Assembly: GCF_947501415.1 (NCBI RefSeq)
Contig: NZ_CANMVL010000022.1
Span: forward strand, 2,873 to 66,872
Source: an uncultured Halomonas sp.
GTDB taxonomy: Bacteria; Pseudomonadota; Gammaproteobacteria; Pseudomonadales; Halomonadaceae
Length of the DNA stretch: 64,000 nucleotides
Direction: 5' to 3'
How positions within the stretch are numbered: position 1 is the first letter of the stretch; each line of letters opens with the position of its first letter. Below are positions 6,820-44,230 of this stretch, in pieces. The translations under genes were made by a program, and so were the position numbers. Below the pieces are notes generated by a model. That model had not been told where the DNA came from. It did not search any database and saw only the letters and a program-made list of their open reading frames with translations.

Positions 6820-6896
6820 AGGACCATAGCTCAGTTGGTTAGAGCGCCACGTTGACATCGTGGAGGTCGGCGGTTCAAATCCGCCTGGTCCTACCA
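6820..6896 (+). tRNA. tRNA-Val(GAC), copy 1
   Basis: Acceptor stem AGGACCA/TGGTCCT, D arm, anticodon stem CCACG-TTGACAT-CGTGG, GGTTCAAATCC T-loop and encoded CCA; 77 nt. Confidence 0.97.
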
Positions 6897-6921: not shown

Positions 6922-6998
6922 AGGACCATAGCTCAGTTGGTTAGAGCGCCACGTTGACATCGTGGAGGTCGGCGGTTCAAATCCGCCTGGTCCTACCA
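6922..6998 (+). tRNA. tRNA-Val(GAC), copy 2
   Basis: Identical 77-nt copy after a 25-bp spacer. Confidence 0.97.
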
Positions 6999-7053: not shown

Positions 7054-7512
7054 CTAGGTGAGGTCGGTGCGCTCGATAAAGGTGGCGACCAGGGCCTCGA
7101 CTCCCTCCCGATCGACCGCGCTGAAGCGGCCTTGCCTCGGGCTGTCCAGATCGAGTACGCCCCACAGGTCATCGTTCACGATGACAGGCACGACCAGCTC
7201 GGACCGCGATGCCGCATCGCAGGCGATATGGTCGGCCACGGCATGGACGTCATCCACCCGCTGGGTGGTGCGAGTGCGTGCCGCAGCACCGCACACGCCC
7301 TTGCTGAAGGGGATCGGGTGGCAGGCCGGCTTGCCCTGGAAGGGGCCCAGGGTAAGCAGTTCGGGCTCGCCCTGTAGATAGAAACCGACCCAGTTGAGGT
7401 CGGGTACCTGCTCCATGATGAAGGCGCATGTCTGGGCGCTATTGGTCAGCCAGTCTCGGGTATCCAGCAGCGCTGCCAGTTGGCGGTTCAGCAGCGAGTA
7501 GTCGGGTGTCAT
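7054..7512 (-). CDS. msrC: GAF-domain free methionine-(R)-sulfoxide reductase
   Basis: NWVGFY, LGPFQGKPAC, IPFSKGVCG, HIACDAASRSELVVP and LDLDSP motifs of the fRMsr/YebR family. Start moved to MTPDYSLL. Confidence 0.9.
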   Translation of the reverse strand: MTPDYSLLNRQLAALLDTRDWLTNSAQTCAFIMEQVPDLNWVGFYLQGEPELLTLGPFQGKPACHPIPFSKGVCGAAARTRTTQRVDDVHAVADHIACDAASRSELVVPVIVNDDLWGVLDLDSPRQGRFSAVDREGVEALVATFIERTDLT

Positions 7513-7530
7513 CTTGGCTCCTTGAAACGC

Positions 7531-7556
7531 AAGGGCCGGCCTCGCGGCCGGCCCTT
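7531..7556. terminator. GC-rich hairpin downstream of metQ (possible weak terminator)
   Basis: AAGGGCCGGCC-TCGC-GGCCGGCCCTT, 11-bp perfect stem with a poor U-tract. Confidence 0.5.
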
Positions 7557-7581
7557 TAGCTATCCGAGTCATTTGTCACTC

Positions 7582-7695
7582 GGGGCTGATCCGTCGCCAA
7601 GCCTTCGAGGAGGCGCTGTGAACCCTTCCCTGGGCGCTACCGACGCCGTCCATGGCGTAGGACCTCCTCTTCGGCTTGCCCCCGGTGCCCCTCGC
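7582..7695. repeat. Structured intergenic repeat, copy A
   Basis: Aligns over about 90 nt with 24309-24414; multi-stem inverted-repeat structure with compensatory changes. Confidence 0.85.
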
Positions 7696-7714: not shown

Positions 7715-8509
7715 TTACTTCCAGCCGGGTACCGCCTGGGCGCCAAAGAGCTCCTCGGCCTTGGCCTCGACCGCCTCGGTCTGATAGGCCTTGACCAGCT
7801 GCTGGATCGCCTCACGCTCCTCGTCACCGCCACGCACGGCGATCAGGTTGACATAGGGAGACTCCGGGCCCTCCTTGATCAGGGCGTCATCCAGGGTCAG
7901 GCCGGCGGGCTGGGCGAAGGTGTTGTTGATAAAGGCCATGTCCACATCGGGCAGCACCCGCGGCAGCTGGGCGGCTTCGATCTCGCGGAACTCGAAGTCA
8001 CGCGGATTGGCGGCGATATCCAGCGGGGTGGCCTCGAGGTTCTCGGGATCCGTCAGCTCCAGCAGTCCCAGATTATGCATCAGGATCAGGGAGCGGCCCT
8101 CGTTGGAAGGGTCGTTGGGTAGGGCGATGGTGGCGCCGTCCGGGAGCTCCTCGATGCTGTCGTACTTGTCGGAGTAGGCGCCGATGGGGTAGACGAAGGT
8201 ATAGCCGGCGACGGCGAAGTCGTAGCCACGATCCTCCACCATGGAGCGCATGTAGGGTTCGTGCTGGTAGGCGTTGGCGTCGAGGCTGCCGTCGGCCAGG
8301 GCGGCATTGGGGGTGACGTAGTCGGTGAACTCGATGATCTCCACCTCGAGGCCATACTCGCGCTGGGCGATCTCGGCGGCGACCTCCATCACCTGGGTCT
8401 CGGGGCCGGCGACGGTGCCGACCTTGATGGCGTGATCATCGGCGAGGGCGGCGCCGGCACTCAGGGCCAGGGCGGAGGCGAGGGCGGTAGTGAGCAGTGT
8501 CTTGTGCAT
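7715..8509 (-). CDS. metQ: Methionine ABC transporter substrate-binding protein (MetQ/NlpA family)
   Basis: IKVG, FTDYVTPNAALADGSLDANAYQHEPY, IALPNDPSNEGRSL and SPYVNLIAVR. No lipobox cysteine seen in the signal peptide. Confidence 0.93.
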   Translation of the reverse strand: MHKTLLTTALASALALSAGAALADDHAIKVGTVAGPETQVMEVAAEIAQREYGLEVEIIEFTDYVTPNAALADGSLDANAYQHEPYMRSMVEDRGYDFAVAGYTFVYPIGAYSDKYDSIEELPDGATIALPNDPSNEGRSLILMHNLGLLELTDPENLEATPLDIAANPRDFEFREIEAAQLPRVLPDVDMAFINNTFAQPAGLTLDDALIKEGPESPYVNLIAVRGGDEEREAIQQLVKAYQTEAVEAKAEELFGAQAVPGWK

Positions 8510-8585: not shown

Positions 8586-9239
8586 CTATTTGTGATCGCT
8601 CTTGCGCACCAGATAATCCCCCAGGCTCTGAAAGCCCTGCACCATGACGACCAGGATCGCCACGGTAATCAGCATGATGGTGGGGTTGAAGCGATTGTAG
8701 CCGTAGCGGATACCCAGGTCGCCCAGGCCGCCGCCGCCAACGGCACCGGCCATGGCCGAGTAGCTCACCAGGGTCACGATGGTAACGGTAAGGGCGGTGA
8801 AGATGCCGCCCCTGGCCTCCGGTAGCAGTACCTTGTGGATGATCTGCCAGGGGGTGGCGCCCATCGACTGGGCGGCCTCGACCAGGCCTGGGTTGATCTC
8901 GTTGAGCGCACCCTCCACCAGGCGTGCGATAAAGGGGATGGCGGCGATGGTCAGTGGCACCGCGGCGGCGTTGGTGCCGATGGAGGTGCCAACGAGCATG
9001 CGCGTGAAGGGGATGATCGCCACCATCAGAATGATAAAGGGGATGGAGCGGCCGATATTGGTGATAATGCCCAGTGCATTATTGAGCACCGGCTGGGCCA
9101 GTACCTGGCCAGGACGGGTGACATATAGCAGCACTCCCAGCGGGATGCCCGCCAGAGCCGAGATCACCCCCGAGATGCCCACCATATAGAGGGTGTCGAG
9201 TGTTGCCTTGAGAATCAGTTCAAGCATCGCGCTGGACAT
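8586..9239 (-). CDS. metI: Methionine ABC transporter permease
   Basis: TLDTLYMV, NIGRSIPFIIL, EAAQSMGA and GAVGGGGLGDLGIRYGYNRF. Confidence 0.95.
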   Translation of the reverse strand: MSSAMLELILKATLDTLYMVGISGVISALAGIPLGVLLYVTRPGQVLAQPVLNNALGIITNIGRSIPFIILMVAIIPFTRMLVGTSIGTNAAAVPLTIAAIPFIARLVEGALNEINPGLVEAAQSMGATPWQIIHKVLLPEARGGIFTALTVTIVTLVSYSAMAGAVGGGGLGDLGIRYGYNRFNPTIMLITVAILVVMVQGFQSLGDYLVRKSDHK

Positions 9240-23311: not shown

Positions 23312-23431
23312 TCAGTCCCGATAGTGACGGGTGAGATCAACATAGGCGCCAACGCGACGGCCGCGGCAGCCCTAGTCTCGATAGCGACGTGTGAGATCGC
23401 GATAGGCGTCAACGCGACGGTCACGGAGGTA
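23312..23431 (-). repeat. Diverged 60-bp tandem duplication of the aguB 3' end
   Basis: 23312-23371 aligns without gaps to 23372-23431 and both copies end in a stop codon (TGA versus TAG). Confidence 0.9.
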
Positions 23432-24271
23432 TGGCCAGATACGTCTCACCTCCTCGCCGCGCCCCATGTCCAGGGTGACCATCAGGCGTTCGGCCTGGCA
23501 GCCGGCATGAGCCAGCAGTTCCCCCTGGGGGCCGGCGATAAAGCTGCCGCCCCAGAAGTCGATGCCACGACCGACGCCGGAGTGGTCGGGCTCGTGGTCG
23601 ATGCGGTTGGCCACCATGACCGGCACGCCATTGGCGACGGCATGGCTGCGCTGGATCAGTGTCCAGGCATCCTTCTGCCGCTGCTTCTCGTCATCGTCAT
23701 CGGCAGGGTCCCAGCCGATGGCGGTGGGGTAGAGCAGCAGCTCGGCTCCAGCCAGGGCCATCAGTCGCGCCGCTTCCGGATACCACTGATCCCAGCACAC
23801 CAGCACACCGAGCCGGCCGATCGAGGTATCGATGGGCACGAAGCCCTGTCCGTCCCCGTCGGCGTCACCCGGAGTGAAATAGAACTTCTCATAGAAGCCC
23901 GGGTCGTCGGGGATATGCATCTTGCGGTAGTGGCCGACGGCGCCGAGCTTGCGGTCATAGACCACGGCGGTATTGTGGTAGAGACCGGCGGCGCGGCGCT
24001 CGAACAGCGAGCCGACCAGCACGATGTCGAGTTCGGCGGCCAGTGCCGCCAGTCGGCTGCCGGTAGGGCCATCCAGGGGTTCGGCCAGATCGAACAGCTC
24101 GGTCGCCTCGTACTGGCAGAAGTAGTGGGTGGCATGCAGTTCCTGCAGCATCACCAGCTCGGCGCCGGCGGCGGCCAGCTCACGAATGCCGGCCTCGCTC
24201 TCGGCGAGGCTTCTGGCCTTGTCGGGCCAGCCGGGTTGCTGGACCAGGCCGACTTTGAGATGGCGGGACAT
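23372..24271 (-). CDS. aguB: N-carbamoylputrescine amidase (carbon-nitrogen hydrolase family)
   Basis: LQELH (catalytic E), YRKMHIPDDPGFYEKFYFTPGD (K) and VCWDQWYPEAAR (C); adjacent to agmatine deiminase. Confidence 0.9.
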   Translation of the reverse strand: MSRHLKVGLVQQPGWPDKARSLAESEAGIRELAAAGAELVMLQELHATHYFCQYEATELFDLAEPLDGPTGSRLAALAAELDIVLVGSLFERRAAGLYHNTAVVYDRKLGAVGHYRKMHIPDDPGFYEKFYFTPGDADGDGQGFVPIDTSIGRLGVLVCWDQWYPEAARLMALAGAELLLYPTAIGWDPADDDDEKQRQKDAWTLIQRSHAVANGVPVMVANRIDHEPDHSGVGRGIDFWGGSFIAGPQGELLAHAGCQAERLMVTLDMGRGEEVRRIWPYLRDRRVDAYRDLTRRYRD

Positions 24272-24308
24272 GGTGATTTCTCCTCGGTACTTGTTTGTCG
24301 TGGCTTCT

Positions 24309-24414
24309 CCGGTGACAGGTTTCCGAGGGGGGCGCTGTGAATACTTCCCTGTACGCTACCGACGCCATCCCTGGCGTAGGACCCCCTCTTCAACCTGTCC
24401 CCGGCGCCTCTCGC
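24309..24414. repeat. Structured intergenic repeat, copy B
   Basis: Homologous to 7591-7695, same orientation, inside the aguA-aguB spacer. Confidence 0.85.
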
Positions 24415-24415
24415 T

Positions 24416-25471
24416 TCAGCTCTCTACGGTCGCCTGGATGTTTAGGCTCCCGCGGGGCAGCTGCATGGTCAGGCAGTGCAGGCTGCCGTGCTGGCGGATG
24501 ACGCTGCGACAGTCGATGGGCACGATATCGCGGTCCGGAAACGCCTCGGCCAGGGCGGCGAGGGCCCGGGTGTCGGCGGCGTCGGCGTAGGTAGGCACCA
24601 GCACGGCGCCGTTGATGATCAGGAAGTTGGCATAGGTGGCCGGCAACCGATGGCCATCTTCGGGATCCCGGCAGGGGGCCGGCCAGGGCAGGGGCACCAG
24701 CCGGTAGGGCTGGCCGTCGGCGCGCCTGAGTGTCTTGAGTTCAGCCTCCATGGCCGCCAGTGCCGGGTAGTGTGGGTCCTGCTCGTCGTCGCAGCGTACA
24801 TAGGCGATGGTGCCGGGGTCACAGAAGCGTGCCAGGGTGTCGATGTGGCTATCGGTGTCGTCGCCCTCCAGGTGGCCGTTGGATAGCCACAGGACTCGGG
24901 TGACACCGAAGTCCCGATGGAGCCATGTCTCCACGCCGCGCCGGTCGAGACCGGGGTTGCGGTTGGGGTTGAGCAGGCAGGCCTCGGTGGTCAGCAGGGT
25001 GCCTTCTCCATCGCTCTCGATGGCCCCTCCCTCCAGTACCAGGCCGCGTTCGCTGATGGGGCAGGCGAAGATGCCGGCCTCGGCAAGGCGGCGGGTCAGG
25101 GTATTGTCCCGGGTGGCGGGAAACTTGCCCCCCCAGCCGGTGAACTCATAGTCGTGCAGCATCAGCTGGCCTTCGCGCTCCACCGCCAGAGGGCCATGGT
25201 CGCGGGCCCAGGTGTCATCCGCCTCGGCGACCACCAGCCTCAAGTGATCGTCGGGAACACCGAGAAGGGAGAAGCGTCGCGTGAGGTGGCTGCGGGTCTG
25301 GGGGGAGGGTACGCTGATCAGCACCCGCTGATAGCGCGCGATGGCGACCACCATCGCTTCCAGCGTCGCCTCGATACGCTCCAGCATCGAGGCCCAGTCG
25401 CTCTCCGGCCCAGGCCAGGTCAGTTGGATGGCATCCTGAGGGTGCCATTCGGGGAGCAGGCGTGTCGCCAT
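24416..25471 (-). CDS. aguA: Agmatine deiminase (PAD_porph family)
   Basis: LPEWHPQ, DTWARDHGP, LEGGAIESDG, DDTDSHID and QHGSLHCLTMQ catalytic motif. An alternative start lies at 25489. Confidence 0.9.
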   Translation of the reverse strand: MATRLLPEWHPQDAIQLTWPGPESDWASMLERIEATLEAMVVAIARYQRVLISVPSPQTRSHLTRRFSLLGVPDDHLRLVVAEADDTWARDHGPLAVEREGQLMLHDYEFTGWGGKFPATRDNTLTRRLAEAGIFACPISERGLVLEGGAIESDGEGTLLTTEACLLNPNRNPGLDRRGVETWLHRDFGVTRVLWLSNGHLEGDDTDSHIDTLARFCDPGTIAYVRCDDEQDPHYPALAAMEAELKTLRRADGQPYRLVPLPWPAPCRDPEDGHRLPATYANFLIINGAVLVPTYADAADTRALAALAEAFPDRDIVPIDCRSVIRQHGSLHCLTMQLPRGSLNIQATVES

Positions 25472-25622
25472 CGGTAGTGTCCTGGTCATTGGTTGTCAGG
25501 ACGCGAATGTAGGTGGCCCGGTCCCGCTATGCAAGAGCAGCAGAGCCGGCGTTGATACCCTTGTCGTCGAGGGTGGTATCCTTCACTCACCAACAACCGC
25601 TCTCGGGTGGCTAAGGAGTGGC

Positions 25623-40520: not shown

Positions 40521-43500
40521 TTAACCCTGCTTGCCCTCCTGTGCCTTGGCCTCCTGCTCGCGACGCCGGATCTCGCGCGGGTCATTGTGGGCACGGCGAC
40601 GACGGCGGCTGGCACAATCTGCTGCTGCGCTCTCCTTGGCCTCGGCCTTGACGGGCTCCTTCTCAGCCGACTCATCGCTGGCCTTGGCGGCCGGCCGCTT
40701 GGCTACTACCGGCTCGGCTTCTGCCGGCTTGGTGTCGGCCTTGGCGTTCGGCTTCTCGGCGGACTGGCTCCTGGCCGGCTGGCTGTCGCCCGTTGCCTCG
40801 GCGGCCGGTTGCTTGGCGGCTACCGGCTCGGCCTCTGCCGGCTTGGTATCGGCCTTGGCGTTCGGCTTCTCGGCAGGCTGGCTCCTGGCCGACTGGCTGT
40901 CGCCCGCTGCCTCGGCGGCCGGTTGCTTGGCCGCTACTGGCTCGGCTTCTGCCGGCTTGGTATCGGCCTTGGCGTTCGGCTTCTCGGCGGACTGGCTCTT
41001 GGCCGACTGGCTCCTGGCGGGTTGGCGGTCGCCCGCTGCCTCGGTGGCCGGCTGCTTGGCTTCTGCCGGCTTGGTGCCGGCCTTGGCGTTCGGCGTCTCG
41101 GCAGGCTGACTCCTGGCCGACTGGCTGTCGCCCACTGCCTCGGCGGCCGGCTGCTTGGCCGCTACCGGCTCGGCCTCTGCCGGCTTGGTGTCGACCTTGG
41201 CATTCGGCTTCTCGGCAGGCTGGCTCTTGGCCGACTGGCTGTCGCCCGCTGCCTCGGCGGCCGGCTGCTTGGCGGCTACCGGTTCGGCCTCTGCCGGCTT
41301 GGTGTCGGCCTTGGCATTCGGCGTCTCGGCAGGCTGACTCTTGGCCGACTGGCTGTCGCCCGCTGCCTCGGCGGCCGGCTGCTTGGCGGCTACCGGCTCG
41401 GCCTCTGCCGGCTTGGTGTCGGCCTTGTCGCTAGCCTTGCCCTGGGCGGTCGGCTGGGCCTCGGCTTCGGTAGTGGTCGGGTTGGCTTCCTCGGCCTTGG
41501 CGGCCTCGGCCTGCAGGCGCTGCTGCTCTTCTAGCGCCTTGGGGCTGATGGCGTGCTGACGGCTACGCTTGCGCGGATTGTTGCGGGTGCGCTTGGGCTT
41601 GCCATCATCCACCGGTGCCTGCGCGCCAGTCTTGGCCGGCTGCTGCTTTTCGGCTGACTTCTGAGGCTCGCCTTGCTTCTGAGACTCGCCTTGTTTCTGA
41701 GCCTCGCCTTGCTTACGGGGCTCGGCCGGCTTCTGGGTCGCACGCGGGTCGCGCTTATCACCGCTGCTCTGGCGGCGGTTGTCATCGCGCCCCTTGCCGC
41801 CATCCTGCTGGCGACCCTTGGTGGTCTCCTGCTGACGGCGATCCTCCTGACGACTGCTCTCCTGACGGTTACGTCCGCGGTTCCCGCGATTGTTGCGGTT
41901 GTCGGCGTTGTCGCTGTCGCTCGCCTTGCGGTCGTTCCGGTCGCTCTCCTGACGTGATGCATCACGCCGCTCGTCGTTGCGCTGGCGACGCTGCCGACTA
42001 TTGCGTCCACCGCGCTCCTCTTCGCGACTGGCAGTCTTGCGCTCGCCCTTGTCACTGCCCGAGGGTGTGGCGCCGCTGCTCGACTTGCTGCTGGAGGCAT
42101 CGCTCGATGGGACCTCGTCGCCCCCCAGCAGCTTGCTCAAGCCCTTGACCAGGCGGCCGAACACGCCACTCTGGGACTCCACGCTTACCGGTGGGGTGCT
42201 GCGAGCGGGAGCGCTGGCCTTGCGGGAGACAGGGGCCTCCTTCTGTGCCGCCGCGGGCTCCTGCTGCAGTGAGGCGGGTGCCGGTTCGTGGTGAATCACG
42301 GTCTTGACGGCAGCTTCGGCACGCTGTGCCGGCTTGCCGAAGGAGGCCTCGGGCTCCTTGCCGACATCGGTCTCCAGGGAGAGCTCGAAACTGGACTTCT
42401 TGCTGCCGTCCTCCTCGACATGGTCGTCGCGCAGGCGCTGGACGTCGTAGTGTGGCGTGTCCATATCGGGGCTGGGCAGCAGGACGACACGCACATCCTG
42501 GCGGCGTTCGATGTCGGCCAGCACCCTGCGCTTCTCGTTGAGCAGGTAGGTGGCCACCGGTACCGGCAGGATGGCGCGGATCTGGGCGCTACGCTCCTTC
42601 ATCGCCTCCTCTTCGATGAGGCGCATGATGGAGAGCGAGATGGAGCGCACGTCACGAATCGTTCCCTGGCCCTTGCAGCGCGGACAGACCACGCCGCTGG
42701 TTTCCCCCAGCGAGGGACGCAGACGCTGACGCGACATCTCCATCAGGCCGAAGCGCGAGATTCGACCGATCTGTACACGGGCGCGATCGAGCTTTAGGGC
42801 ATCGCGCATGCGATTCTCGACTTCGCGCTGGTTGCGCGCAGGGCTCATGTCGATGAAGTCGATCACCACCAGACCACCGATATCACGCAGGCGAAGCTGG
42901 CGAGCAGTCTCGTCGGCCGCCTCCAGGTTGGTCTGCAGAGCGGTCTCCTCGATATCGCTGCCGCGAGTCGCACGCGCGGAGTTGATGTCGATGGAGACCA
43001 GTGCCTCGGTATGGTCGATGACGATGGAACCACCGGAGGGTAGCTTGACCTCGCGCTCGTAGGCGGTCTCGATCTGTGACTCGATCTGGAAGCGCGAGAA
43101 CAGCGGCACCTCGTCGACGTAGAGCTTGATCTTCTGCTGGTAGGAGGGCATCACCTGACGAATGAAGGCGAGGGCTTCCTCGTGCACCGCGGGGCTGTCG
43201 ATCAGCACCTCGCCGATATCCTGGCGCAGGTAGTCGCGCATGGCGCGGATGATGACATTGGATTCACGGTAGATCAGGAAGGGAGCGGAGCGCTTGCTGG
43301 CCTCGGTGGTGATCGATTCCCACACCTGTACCAGATAGTCCAGGTCCCACTGAAGCTCCTCGGGGCTGCGGCCGATACCGGCGGTGCGCACGATCAGGCC
43401 CATGCGGTCCGGCACGCTGAGCTGATTCATGGCCTCCTTGAGCTGGCTGCGCTCCTCGCCCTCGATACGGCGCGAGATTCCGCCGGCCTTGGGGTTGTTG

Positions 43501-43886
43501 GGCATCAGCACCAGGAAGCGTCCGGCCAGGGAGATAAAGGTGGTCAGGGCCGCGCCCTTGTTGCCACGCTCCTCCTTGTCGACCTGGACGATCACTTCCT
43601 GGCCTTCCTTCAGCACCTCCTTGATGCTGGGACGCCCGTCCGGGTCCTTGACGAAGTAGTCGCGGGAGACCTCCTTGAGGGGCAGGAAGCCGTGGCGGTC
43701 GGCGCCAAAGTCGACGAAGGCGGCTTCGAGGGAGGGTTCTATGCGGGTGATCTTGCCGCGATAGATGTTGGCTTTCTTCTGTTCTCGGGCGCCGGATTCG
43801 ATATCCAGGTCGTAGAGGCGTTGTCCATCGACCAGCGCGACGCGCAGCTCTTCGGGCTGGGTCGCATTGATGAGCATCCGTTTCAT
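40521..43886 (-). CDS. rne: Ribonuclease E
   Basis: [31 protein letters not shown]-terminus, [15 protein letters not shown] and CPRCKGQG zinc link, then a long low-complexity C-terminal half. Start moved to 43886. Confidence 0.98.
40680..41426 (-). repeat. 114-bp (38-aa) coding tandem array in the RNase E C-terminal region, 6 units plus a partial seventh
   Basis: [38 protein letters not shown]-type units; DNA period checked at 114 bp (40741 versus 40855). Confidence 0.95.
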
Positions 43887-44230
43887 GTTGACTCGCACTG
43901 ATAAAGTGCCGGCGAGCGCGACGTGGCGAACCGCTGTGTGCTGCGTGCCTGTGCTCAGCGCATGTCGCGGATGCGCAGCTGCGTCCGACCGCGTCGCTCC
44001 CGATGGGGCAGCGCCGCGGCATGAGCCTGTTGAGTACGGGGCGGGGGCAGAACGTGTCTCGGTGGGTGTCACCCATCCGGCCCTGCGGTCACCGCCAACA
44101 CCTGGCATTCATCGATTCGCCAACGCCGGCCTCCGGCACGCTGTTGAACGTGTCCCGTGGCCTGCCGCCGCTCCGTGACTGAGGACGCGGTGGGGGATAC
44201 GGGCGTGGCGCGGTTATCGCGATATCACTT
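43887..44230 (-). promoter_or_regulatory. Long rne 5' leader (putative autoregulatory structured UTR)
   Basis: The rne-rluC intergenic region is about 570 bp, with a TTGCAA promoter-like element near 44244-44249 on the minus strand. Long structured rne leaders are established in E. coli and Pseudomonas. Boundaries are approximate. Confidence 0.45.

Follow-up and report, generated by a model that had tools for sequence, protein, structure and literature searches.

The window analyzed here, a 64,000-nucleotide stretch of contig NZ_CANMVL010000022.1 from an uncultured Halomonas sp., carries two copies (A and B) of a structured intergenic repeat, and these belong to what is apparently a large and so far undescribed family of such repeats in the Halomonadaceae. 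On balance, and with limited confidence, we favor the view that both are noncoding, nonautonomous elements of about 110 nt, comparable to repetitive extragenic palindromes (REPs) and miniature inverted-repeat transposable elements (MITEs), of which a single strand is read by a trans-acting factor. A preliminary description of this DNA had reported two look-alike stretches in one orientation, and both the alignment and the column map of the family bear this out (Table 1). The copies share 84% column identity across 160 nt, and the 30-nt and 21-nt core patterns occur twice each in the window, versus 0.00 to 0.01 expected from shuffles. Both match the covariance model of the family, R1, which was built from 90 canonical copies (126.1 bits and E 1.6e-30 for copy A; 127.6 bits and E 6.4e-31 for copy B). 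The label "two-copy" holds inside this window but not for the family, since at least 119 loci were recovered from Halomonadaceae genomes when one genome per species was scanned for the exact pattern.

Among the matches listed, all were labeled as Halomonadaceae except two loci from one metagenome-assembled genome labeled only "Pseudomonadota bacterium", and the genera represented were Halomonas, Billgrantia, Vreelandella, Onishia, Salinicola, and Modicisalibacter. A distant BLAST search of a plasmid collection gave seven places, all in one unannotated 1.83-Mb Halomonas replicon. When R1 was run over 1.16 Mb of Halomonadaceae DNA (8-kb loci, named L001 and so on, that were chosen for containing the element and are not whole genomes), about 138 copies were found, some 14 of which had been missed by the search pattern. 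In flanking DNA, further copies appear about every 60 kb, compared with two in the 64 kb of the window; there are probably tens of copies per genome, as an estimate and not a count. In all the material recovered here, the family is confined to the Halomonadaceae. The dispersed REP/MITE-like repeat of the preliminary description is therefore supported, both by the number of loci and by the presence/absence polymorphism described below.

The element is also found in transcripts. RNA-seq assemblies of a related organism contained 18 to 28 element-bearing contigs each, with one copy inside an 8.3-kb contig, and Logan contigs of related organisms, which carry no strand or end information, had the element within transcripts at high repeat depth. 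We found no RNA-seq run containing the window's own organism, the best RNA run sharing 10% of its words. As a separate observation, the word depth over the element at one locus (L067 4132-4323, runs X54 to X56) was about 8 to 80 times that of its flanks, with hundreds of distinct contigs per run, which suggests that this organism or community carries many copies.

The earlier suggestion that the element is undescribed was in line with the database searches. A comparison of the window with Rfam gave no match to the element at the gathering threshold, where two tRNAs were the only hits, or at E values up to 10, where nothing over the element exceeded 17 bits. A blastn search (word size 11) with copy A against 5,426 genomes of Escherichia coli, a species whose genomes carry enterobacterial repetitive intergenic consensus (ERIC) and REP sequences, gave nothing at E 0.1, and viral contigs scanned with the pattern were likewise without a match. 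The literature searched on Halomonas with REP, MITE, REPIN (REP doublet forming a hairpin), or RAYT (REP-associated tyrosine transposase), and on CsrA with REP, contained no account of the family.

A covarying fold with a branched apex

The consensus fold, as written on the plus strand, is a long interrupted hairpin (P0-P1-P2) with a three-way junction as a cap, bearing two small hairpins (H1 and H2). From the outside inward, the 5 bp of P0 are followed by a bulge of 4 nt, by the 12 bp of P1, in which a C faced by another C is conserved, by an internal loop (UNC/UNC, 3x3 and symmetric), and by the 7 bp of P2, whose 5' arm is purine rich. The junction then comprises J1 (CGCUGUGAA), H1 (3 bp and a 6-nt loop, NUCCNU), J2 (CGCUA), H2 (8 bp and a 6-nt loop, WUCCMU), and one A. 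All the stems by which the two window copies had been singled out are present as claimed, i.e., the outer stem CAAGCC/GGCTTG in copy A versus CAGGTT/AACCTG in copy B, the middle stem GAGGAGG/CCTCCTC versus GAGGGGG/CCCCCTC, and the side hairpin CCC..GGG versus TAC..GTA, together with the ACGCC..GGCGT stem and GCGCTGTGAA, which are invariant between the two.

Across the 90 aligned copies, 92.7% of the paired cells are indeed paired, versus 36 to 53% when the partners are slid by one to three columns, and double changes that keep the pairing occur in 29 of the 35 pairs (476 cells). None of 500 shuffles reached the observed value on any of five measures. The double changes affect all 5 pairs of P0, all 12 of P1, and 4 of the 7 pairs of P2, and covariation extends to 6 of 7 pairs in the H2 stem; the H2 loop has no variation at columns T80, C82, and T84 and at least 90% conservation at C81. 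Considering that there are 57 distinct combinations of P2, H1, and H2 among the 90 copies, and that linkage between helices is barely above permutation, the covariation is not the product of a few subfamilies; the helices vary nearly independently of one another. Selection on a multi-way-junction fold, as proposed in the preliminary description, is thus supported by the 29 covarying pairs and the shuffles, in the sense of selection or another strong constraint. Sequences for J1, J2, and a portion of H1 were prescribed by the search pattern, and the filter for canonical copies demanded a perfect 5-nt P2 arm. In the approximately 14 copies found by the model only, J1 and J2 vary (GCGCTGTAAA, GCGCTATGAA, CGCCAC, and others), and the H2 loop is intact.

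Some copies carry modules nested within the H2 loop. The first of them (X1), of about 80 nt and with hairpins of its own (GGCC-ATCCAT-GGCC and others), is found in L017, L019, L021, L024, L033, L037, L038, L041, L043, L090, L105, L111, L115, and others, and a still longer form is found in L017, L047, L094, and L118. Two orthologous copies differ by this module, present in L024 and absent from L016. The second (X2) is a different module of about 55 nt in the same loop (L020, L023, L030, L064, L084, and L103), and the copies that carry it look like mainly Vreelandella ones. It contains CCGCC-ATGGAT-GGCGG, which places GGA loops on the opposite strand, and three of these six copies lie between convergent genes according to our own gene calls. 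An extra small hairpin is present in one arm of some copies.

Placement and turnover of the copies

Copies are scattered singly among housekeeping genes. From the preceding stop codon to the copy, the median distance is 25 nt (40 nt or less in 60 of 85 copies), and divergent promoter regions are underrepresented among their sites. Gene orientations were called with a crude GC-frame gene finder, spot-checked on leuB, thrC, holC, metQ, and aguA. By these calls, the strand that folds (the complement of the plus strand, as discussed below) is the sense strand in 50 copies and the opposite one in 29, or 28 versus 17 when copies are collapsed to 94 site clusters, with 18 copies between convergent genes and 9 between divergent genes. 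Among copies between tandem genes, about 37% are reversed, with pairing just as good.

The same site can be filled in one genome and empty in another. At the hom-thrC junction, two loci are filled (L081 and L076), another has a remnant (L085), and a fourth has a 4-nt spacer only (L108); four more cases were found besides this junction and copy A. Among 54 metagenomic loci orthologous to metQ, the gene that precedes copy A, the model matched in two. One of them (L123, 96% MetQ identity) is the sole locus with the element directly behind metQ, and the copy in the other (L157) is farther downstream, by about 580 nt. In six other aligned metQ orthologues (84 to 92% identity), the stop codon leads straight to a conserved terminator and the element is absent. 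The simplest reading of these alignments is that copy A would be a recent gain, with precise loss elsewhere as the alternative.

Filled sites are not static either. Opposite orientations were found at four pairs of orthologous sites (L002/L022, L072/L044, L067/L113, and L098/L066). Orthologues in the same orientation differ by 134 double stem changes versus 85 single ones, more than the divergence of their flanks permits (14 of the 35 pairs are doubly changed at 93% flank identity), and this excess implies that the copies at a site are being replaced. Two kinds of doublets, one head-to-head and inverted, with two P0 arms abutting around a CTC center (L081 2934-3176), and the other tandem and direct, with copies about 10 nt apart (L119 805-1052), might plausibly be intermediates of the orientation flips and of replacement at orthologous sites. 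Among the few sites that appear genuinely old is the one behind a recB-like gene (L001, L082, and L112), whose copies have a rare GAC/GTC closing variant in common and are single compensated pairs apart. Copy B and its orthologue in Halomonas mongoliensis (L004 1624-1748) are four double stem changes apart.

The surplus of double changes between orthologues with little flank divergence points to copying over stepwise compensation. It could mean that there is no selection on the fold at all and that pairing is kept by intrastrand template switching, arm-to-arm conversion, or gene conversion between copies, the compensatory changes being by-products, as in DNA quasi-palindromes. The palindromic center of the inverted doublet (at about position 3050 of L081) would agree with this, as would an arms-only derivative (L031 1640-1711) in which both arms of P0 and P1 surround an unrelated 15-nt center and the apex is absent. 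Nevertheless, we consider this explanation very improbable, since template switching cannot yield a strand-asymmetric tolerance of wobble pairs (see below), and it leaves unexplained the invariant asymmetric apex, the bulges and the C.C mismatch that are never "corrected", and the five near-independent helices.

Strand asymmetry, possible mobilization, and known repeat families

The two strands of the element are not equivalent. Wobble-compatible mismatches (G.U/G.T) number 69 on the complement of the plus strand versus 20 on the plus strand in the 90 copies, and 17 pair positions lean to wobble on the complement versus 3 the other way (a count from the per-pair table). A hand count in 15 independent long-form copies gave about 30 versus about 6. 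The minus strand has the lower minimum free energy in all but one of the 90 copies (means of -62.5 and -55.7 kcal/mol, respectively, for minus and plus), and for copy A the values are -55.1 kcal/mol for the minus-strand RNA and -45.5 for the plus strand. The wobble asymmetry persists (9 versus 1) in copies whose neighboring genes would transcribe the opposite strand. It was also unrelated to replication direction as judged by GC skew, a proxy used without mapping of the origin: with the 8-kb loci turned to the element's orientation, the sign was negative in 59 and positive in 59. Since the asymmetry is indifferent to gene direction and GC skew, a mutation bias coupled to transcription or replication does not explain it, and, given its indifference to gene direction, neither does selection on the host transcript; rather, it indicates that one particular single strand is read.

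These results weaken the possibility, raised in the preliminary description, of a structured RNA acting in host mRNA, given that about 37% of the tandem-context copies are reversed and equally paired and that orientation flips at orthologous sites. There is a form of this idea in which sense does not matter, i.e., an RNA hairpin kept for the host as a 3'-exonuclease barrier, intercistronic stabilizer, attenuator, or RNase III site, like the REP/BIME sequences of E. coli, with mobility being incidental or ancient. It would agree with the stable folding of both senses, with a structure equally intact in both orientations, with the position of copies nearly always in transcribed intergenic DNA after stops (also inside long RNA-seq contigs), and with syntenic copies in several genera that stay paired at 20 to 30% flank divergence. 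We find it unlikely, however, because transcripts of the plus sense tolerate A.C and not G.U (the same 9 versus 1), so that the transcript is not what selection sees there; besides, a plain barrier needs no invariant loops or junction strands, and metQ orthologues at 92% identity or less do well without copy A.

A protein that reads the loops could be CsrA. Each apical loop, read on the folding strand, has 6 nt with the sequence A-N-G-G-A-N and is closed by C-G (AGGGAA and AUGGAC in copy A), which is the CsrA/RsmE consensus. The two hexaloops start 22 nt apart (at 7626 and 7648), a spacing that one CsrA dimer can span. The consensus obtained for CsrA by SELEX is RUACARGGAUGU, with 6-nt loops and stems of 4 bp or less preferred (PMC7652899), and the TAC variant of H1 gives GUACAGGGAAGU, which has 11 of its 12 positions. 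Like the CsrB/RsmY/RsmZ sponges and the CsrA sites of mRNA leaders, the element has GGA in 6-nt, C-G-closed loops, at least two sites that a dimer could bridge, and CANGGANG. Unlike those dedicated small RNA genes or 5' leaders of fixed orientation, it is a dispersed repeat found in both orientations, within a long helix. None of the Csr/Rsm models of Rfam matched it.

The element might then be a portable CsrA (RsmA)-binding module, kept for Csr control of host mRNAs or as a distributed CsrA sponge, in which one CsrA dimer would bridge the two hairpins and the long form would offer three or four such sites. The invariant H2 loop on a covarying stem would agree with this, the GGA strand is the one singled out by wobble asymmetry and folding energy, X1 adds GGCC-AUGGAU-GGCC and GC-AGGAUG...GC on that same strand, and the CsrA protein of Halomonas shares 86% identity with its E. 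coli counterpart (PMC12889724). The orientation of the copies also leans to the GGA sense, which is the gene context of both window copies, but this bias is not significant once orthologues are collapsed, and the reversed tandem-context copies, transcribed as the UCC sense, are equally paired and have the same asymmetry. Moreover, orientation flips at orthologous sites, X2 has its GGA motifs on the other strand, and any loop-reading protein would yield the same pattern of conservation, so we hold this alternative to be improbable. The same low probability is given to the idea that the element is a mobile carrier of predicted CsrA sites, that is, a self-spreading, structurally insulated hairpin pair that would seed Csr control or titration into sense-oriented transcripts. 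If this were true, the posttranscriptional regulon of the Halomonadaceae would be rewired by transposition and not by point mutation.

We return to the reading favored at the outset, a repeat whose single strand is read in trans. Contrary to what a MITE would lead one to expect, the target-site duplications envisaged in the preliminary description were not found at any length from 2 to 9 nt around the copies; there is no excess of direct repeats of 3 to 9 nt at any offset, and a 2-nt TC/TC excess vanishes in P0-intact copies without TC on both sides (5 of 41 match). Flank conservation is weak (C before P0 and T after P0). No open reading frame (ORF) or long gene-bearing form was detected, all pattern matches being 104 to 222 nt long. 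An insertion of the apex into an older hairpin was considered and rejected, the TTC direct repeats that flank the P2 domain not being significant (18 versus 13.6 expected). Lacking an ORF, a target-site duplication, and an autonomous parent, the element must rely on a trans-acting factor to spread and be maintained, and the absence of duplication, the strand-specific fold, and the disregard for gene direction are most simply reconciled by a factor that acts on single-stranded DNA. In the mechanism we propose, one DNA strand, or its transcript (the complement of the window's plus strand), would fold, and the element would spread or persist through a host- or element-encoded factor in trans that recognizes the single-stranded fold, with loops and junction as its sequence determinants and stems giving the shape. 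We infer that mobilization would take place in trans via a single-stranded intermediate. In mRNA, by analogy with REP and ERIC, a hairpin of -45 to -55 kcal/mol would form in either sense and would probably be a 3'-exonuclease barrier or a processing site, through which copy A may affect the stability of the metQ 3' end and copy B the aguA:aguB ratio.

A linked RAYT or IS200-type gene, as the preliminary description had envisaged, was not found in the 1.16 Mb. A tblastn search with E. coli RayT over this DNA (again, not whole genomes) gave one match (L092 1663-2097, E 7e-9, 35% identity over 83 residues, with an HVH motif), located 2.8 kb from an element copy. This RAYT-like gene is flanked on both sides (L092 1300-2500) by arrays of a different REP (...GGAGCCCAGCTCCCACCAGTAGC...), with tandem units of about 60 nt at 2100-2330, and represents a second, classical REP-RAYT-type system beside the element in one genome.

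The element is nonetheless similar to REP/BIME of the Enterobacteriaceae and REPIN of Pseudomonas in several respects: it is extragenic, palindromic, present in many copies and in either orientation just after stop codons in transcribed DNA, it occurs as singlets, inverted doublets, and tandem clusters, and it persists within its lineage. A REP in the strict sense would be mobilized by a RAYT (an HUH Y1 transposase) that binds single-stranded DNA, the cognate RAYT being single copy. The folding strand of J2-H1 reads GUAG plus an imperfect hairpin (GTAG-CGC-CCAGGGAAGGG-TTCACA-GCG). Here, as in GTAG-tagged REPs, the GTAG is on the strand that folds when single and marks the 5' foot of the H1 domain. 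Target-site duplications are lacking, as for HUH enzymes, RAYT-like genes do occur in Halomonas (L092), and the family is persistent and apparently lineage restricted, as reported for REPIN-RAYT systems (bioRxiv 10.1101/2021.07.10.451892). On the other hand, the GTAG could be due to chance, and it is internal, while tagged REPs have GTAG (or CGTC) at one end. The element is a 110-nt unit with a three-way junction and REP is a simple hairpin of 20 to 40 nt; its apex is conserved and its arms are variable and covarying, the reverse of REPIN, which has conserved inverted arms and a variable spacer. Among 138 copies, about six RAYT-flanking loci would be expected by our own estimate, and none was seen; the lone RAYT-like gene has unrelated arrays around it. 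A strict REP is, in our view, quite improbable, more so than the host hairpin or the CsrA module.

Other families of small repeats were compared as well. MITE-type repeats have terminal inverted repeats with target-site duplication, usually of TA. The arms of the element are inverted repeats, but no longer form carrying an ORF, as expected of a MITE parent, turned up. ERIC/IRU, YPAL of Yersinia (classed among MITEs), Correia/NEMIS of Neisseria, and RUP and BOX of pneumococcus resemble the element in size class (about 100 to 170 nt), in folding as a whole-element hairpin, and in being intergenic and cotranscribed, with presence/absence polymorphism, modular insert variants, and, for those repeats, proposed effects on mRNA stability (PMC3733652). 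They differ from it in that their folds are simple rods, whereas the element has a branched apex, sequence-invariant loops, strand-specific wobble, and no duplication. Two traits of the IS200/IS605 type are present, the absence of target-site duplication and hairpins favored on one strand only, and PATEs derived from such elements also resemble it in having short flanks of weak conservation and no terminal inverted repeats of the DDE kind. In contrast to their two subterminal hairpins, the element has one whole-element fold, and it shows no orientation bias with GC skew and no tnpA/tnpB nearby. It was not an integron attC site either, since cores of the type RYYYAAC/GTTRRRY and arrays next to intI were lacking, the ends being GGGGC...GCCCC and the copies scattered singly. 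The family is thus set apart from REP/REPIN by size, symmetry, and the lack of a flanked RAYT in the 1.16 Mb, from MITEs by the lack of target duplication, no parent insertion sequence having turned up in this DNA, and from IS200-derived elements by the lack of replication bias in GC skew.

Several points weigh against a mobile repeat read as a single strand. No transposase, autonomous parent, or target-site duplication was found, so that the term "mobile" rests on comparative presence and absence, and the empty sites are too diverged to give exact junctions. The strand-specific wobble without a link to GC skew speaks against a lagging-strand mechanism like that of IS200/IS605. The invariance of J1 and J2 and the 100% pairing of P2 are overstated, being partly built in by the pattern and the filter. 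Lastly, old syntenic copies that are shared across genera and still well folded fit host-level selection or concerted evolution better than pure selfishness.

If our reading holds, the Halomonadaceae, a group that includes industrial Halomonas strains, own a long-lived family of small structured repeats whose architecture (invariant loops on covarying stems, branched apex, no duplication, and strand-specific folding) fits none of the REP, REPIN, and MITE families compared. The 29 covarying pairs, together with frequent replacement and flipping at fixed sites, would make it a natural data set on the persistence of such elements and would point to a factor that reads a single-stranded three-way junction. 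For expression engineering in Halomonas, it would be relevant that dozens of operon junctions and 3' untranslated regions in each genome are marked by it as places of possibly altered mRNA stability and, perhaps, CsrA control. Annotators could use a covariance model of the family to mask a recurrent source of spurious small ORFs and assembly breaks.

Genes around the window copies

Both copies lie just 3' of the stop codon of a minus-strand gene, as had been described, at 23 nt from that of metQ for copy A and at 5 nt, measured to P0, from that of aguA for copy B (Table 1). Copy A is located between this stop and the terminator of the met operon, i.e., in the metQ 3' untranslated region, and the terminator is kept in orthologous loci without the element. 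Copy B is inside the aguA-aguB operon, between the aguA stop and the ribosome-binding site of aguB, and no promoter-like or terminator-like site was found near it. Since both follow minus-strand genes inside transcription units, they are expected to be transcribed as the complement of the plus strand.

Table 1. Positions of the two element copies, their parts, and adjacent genes in the window
Feature	Positions	Strand	Details
Copy A, whole element (P0 to P0)	7582-7691	-	Folding strand is the complement of the window's plus strand
Copy A, conserved flanks	7579-7581, 7692-7695		CTC; TCGC
Copy A, 5' arm (as written on plus)	7582-7613		P0 GGGGC 7582-7586; bulge TGAT 7587-7590; P1 7591-7603 (with a single unpaired C facing C); internal loop TTC 7604-7606; P2 GAGGAGG 7607-7613
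Copy A, apex (three-way junction)	7614-7662		J1 CGCTGTGAA 7614-7622; H1 CCC/TTCCCT/GGG 7623-7634; J2 CGCTA 7635-7639; H2 CCGACGCC/GTCCAT/GGCGTAGG 7640-7661; A 7662
Copy A, 3' arm (as written on plus)	7663-7691		P2 CCTCCTC 7663-7669; internal loop TTC 7670-7672; P1 7673-7685; T 7686; P0 GCCCC 7687-7691
Copy B, whole element	24300-24410	-	TCGC flank 24411-24414
Copy B, helices			P0 GTGGC/GCCTC (one mismatch); P1 24309-24321/24392-24404; P2 24325-24332/24382-24388
Copy B, hairpins			H1 TAC/TTCCCT/GTA 24342-24353; H2 24359-24380
Rho-independent terminator of met operon	7530-7557	-	Downstream of copy A, outside the element
metQ (MetQ/NlpA lipoprotein)	7715-8509	-	TIGR00363, 262 bits, over cutoff; stop precedes copy A
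metI	8586-9239	-	
aguB-like	23372-24271	-	TIGR03381, E 1.3e-77, below equivalog cutoff; follows copy B
aguA-like agmatine deiminase	24416-25489	-	TIGR03380, E 6.5e-66, below equivalog cutoff; stop precedes copy B

Other features of the window were recorded along the way. An ORF at 40521-44108 on the minus strand (1195 amino acids) was read as a putative RNase E from its sequence. A cluster of CANGGANG motifs at about 43.4 to 43.7 kb, tried as a candidate Csr small RNA, was rejected, as it actually corresponds to CAAGGAGG (Lys-Glu) codons within this RNase E-like ORF. Two tRNA-Val(GAC) genes with equal Rfam scores (6820-6896 and 6922-6998, plus strand) are located 26 nt apart, just upstream of the region of the met operon and of a GAF-domain gene. 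The latter, an ORF at 7054-7572 on the minus strand downstream of copy A, codes for a GAF-domain protein (Pfam PF01590), and its mechanical start at 7572 crosses the met terminator. Its true start is probably the ATG at 7512, which follows the predicted ribosome-binding site AAGGAG and is the point from which its orthologues align.

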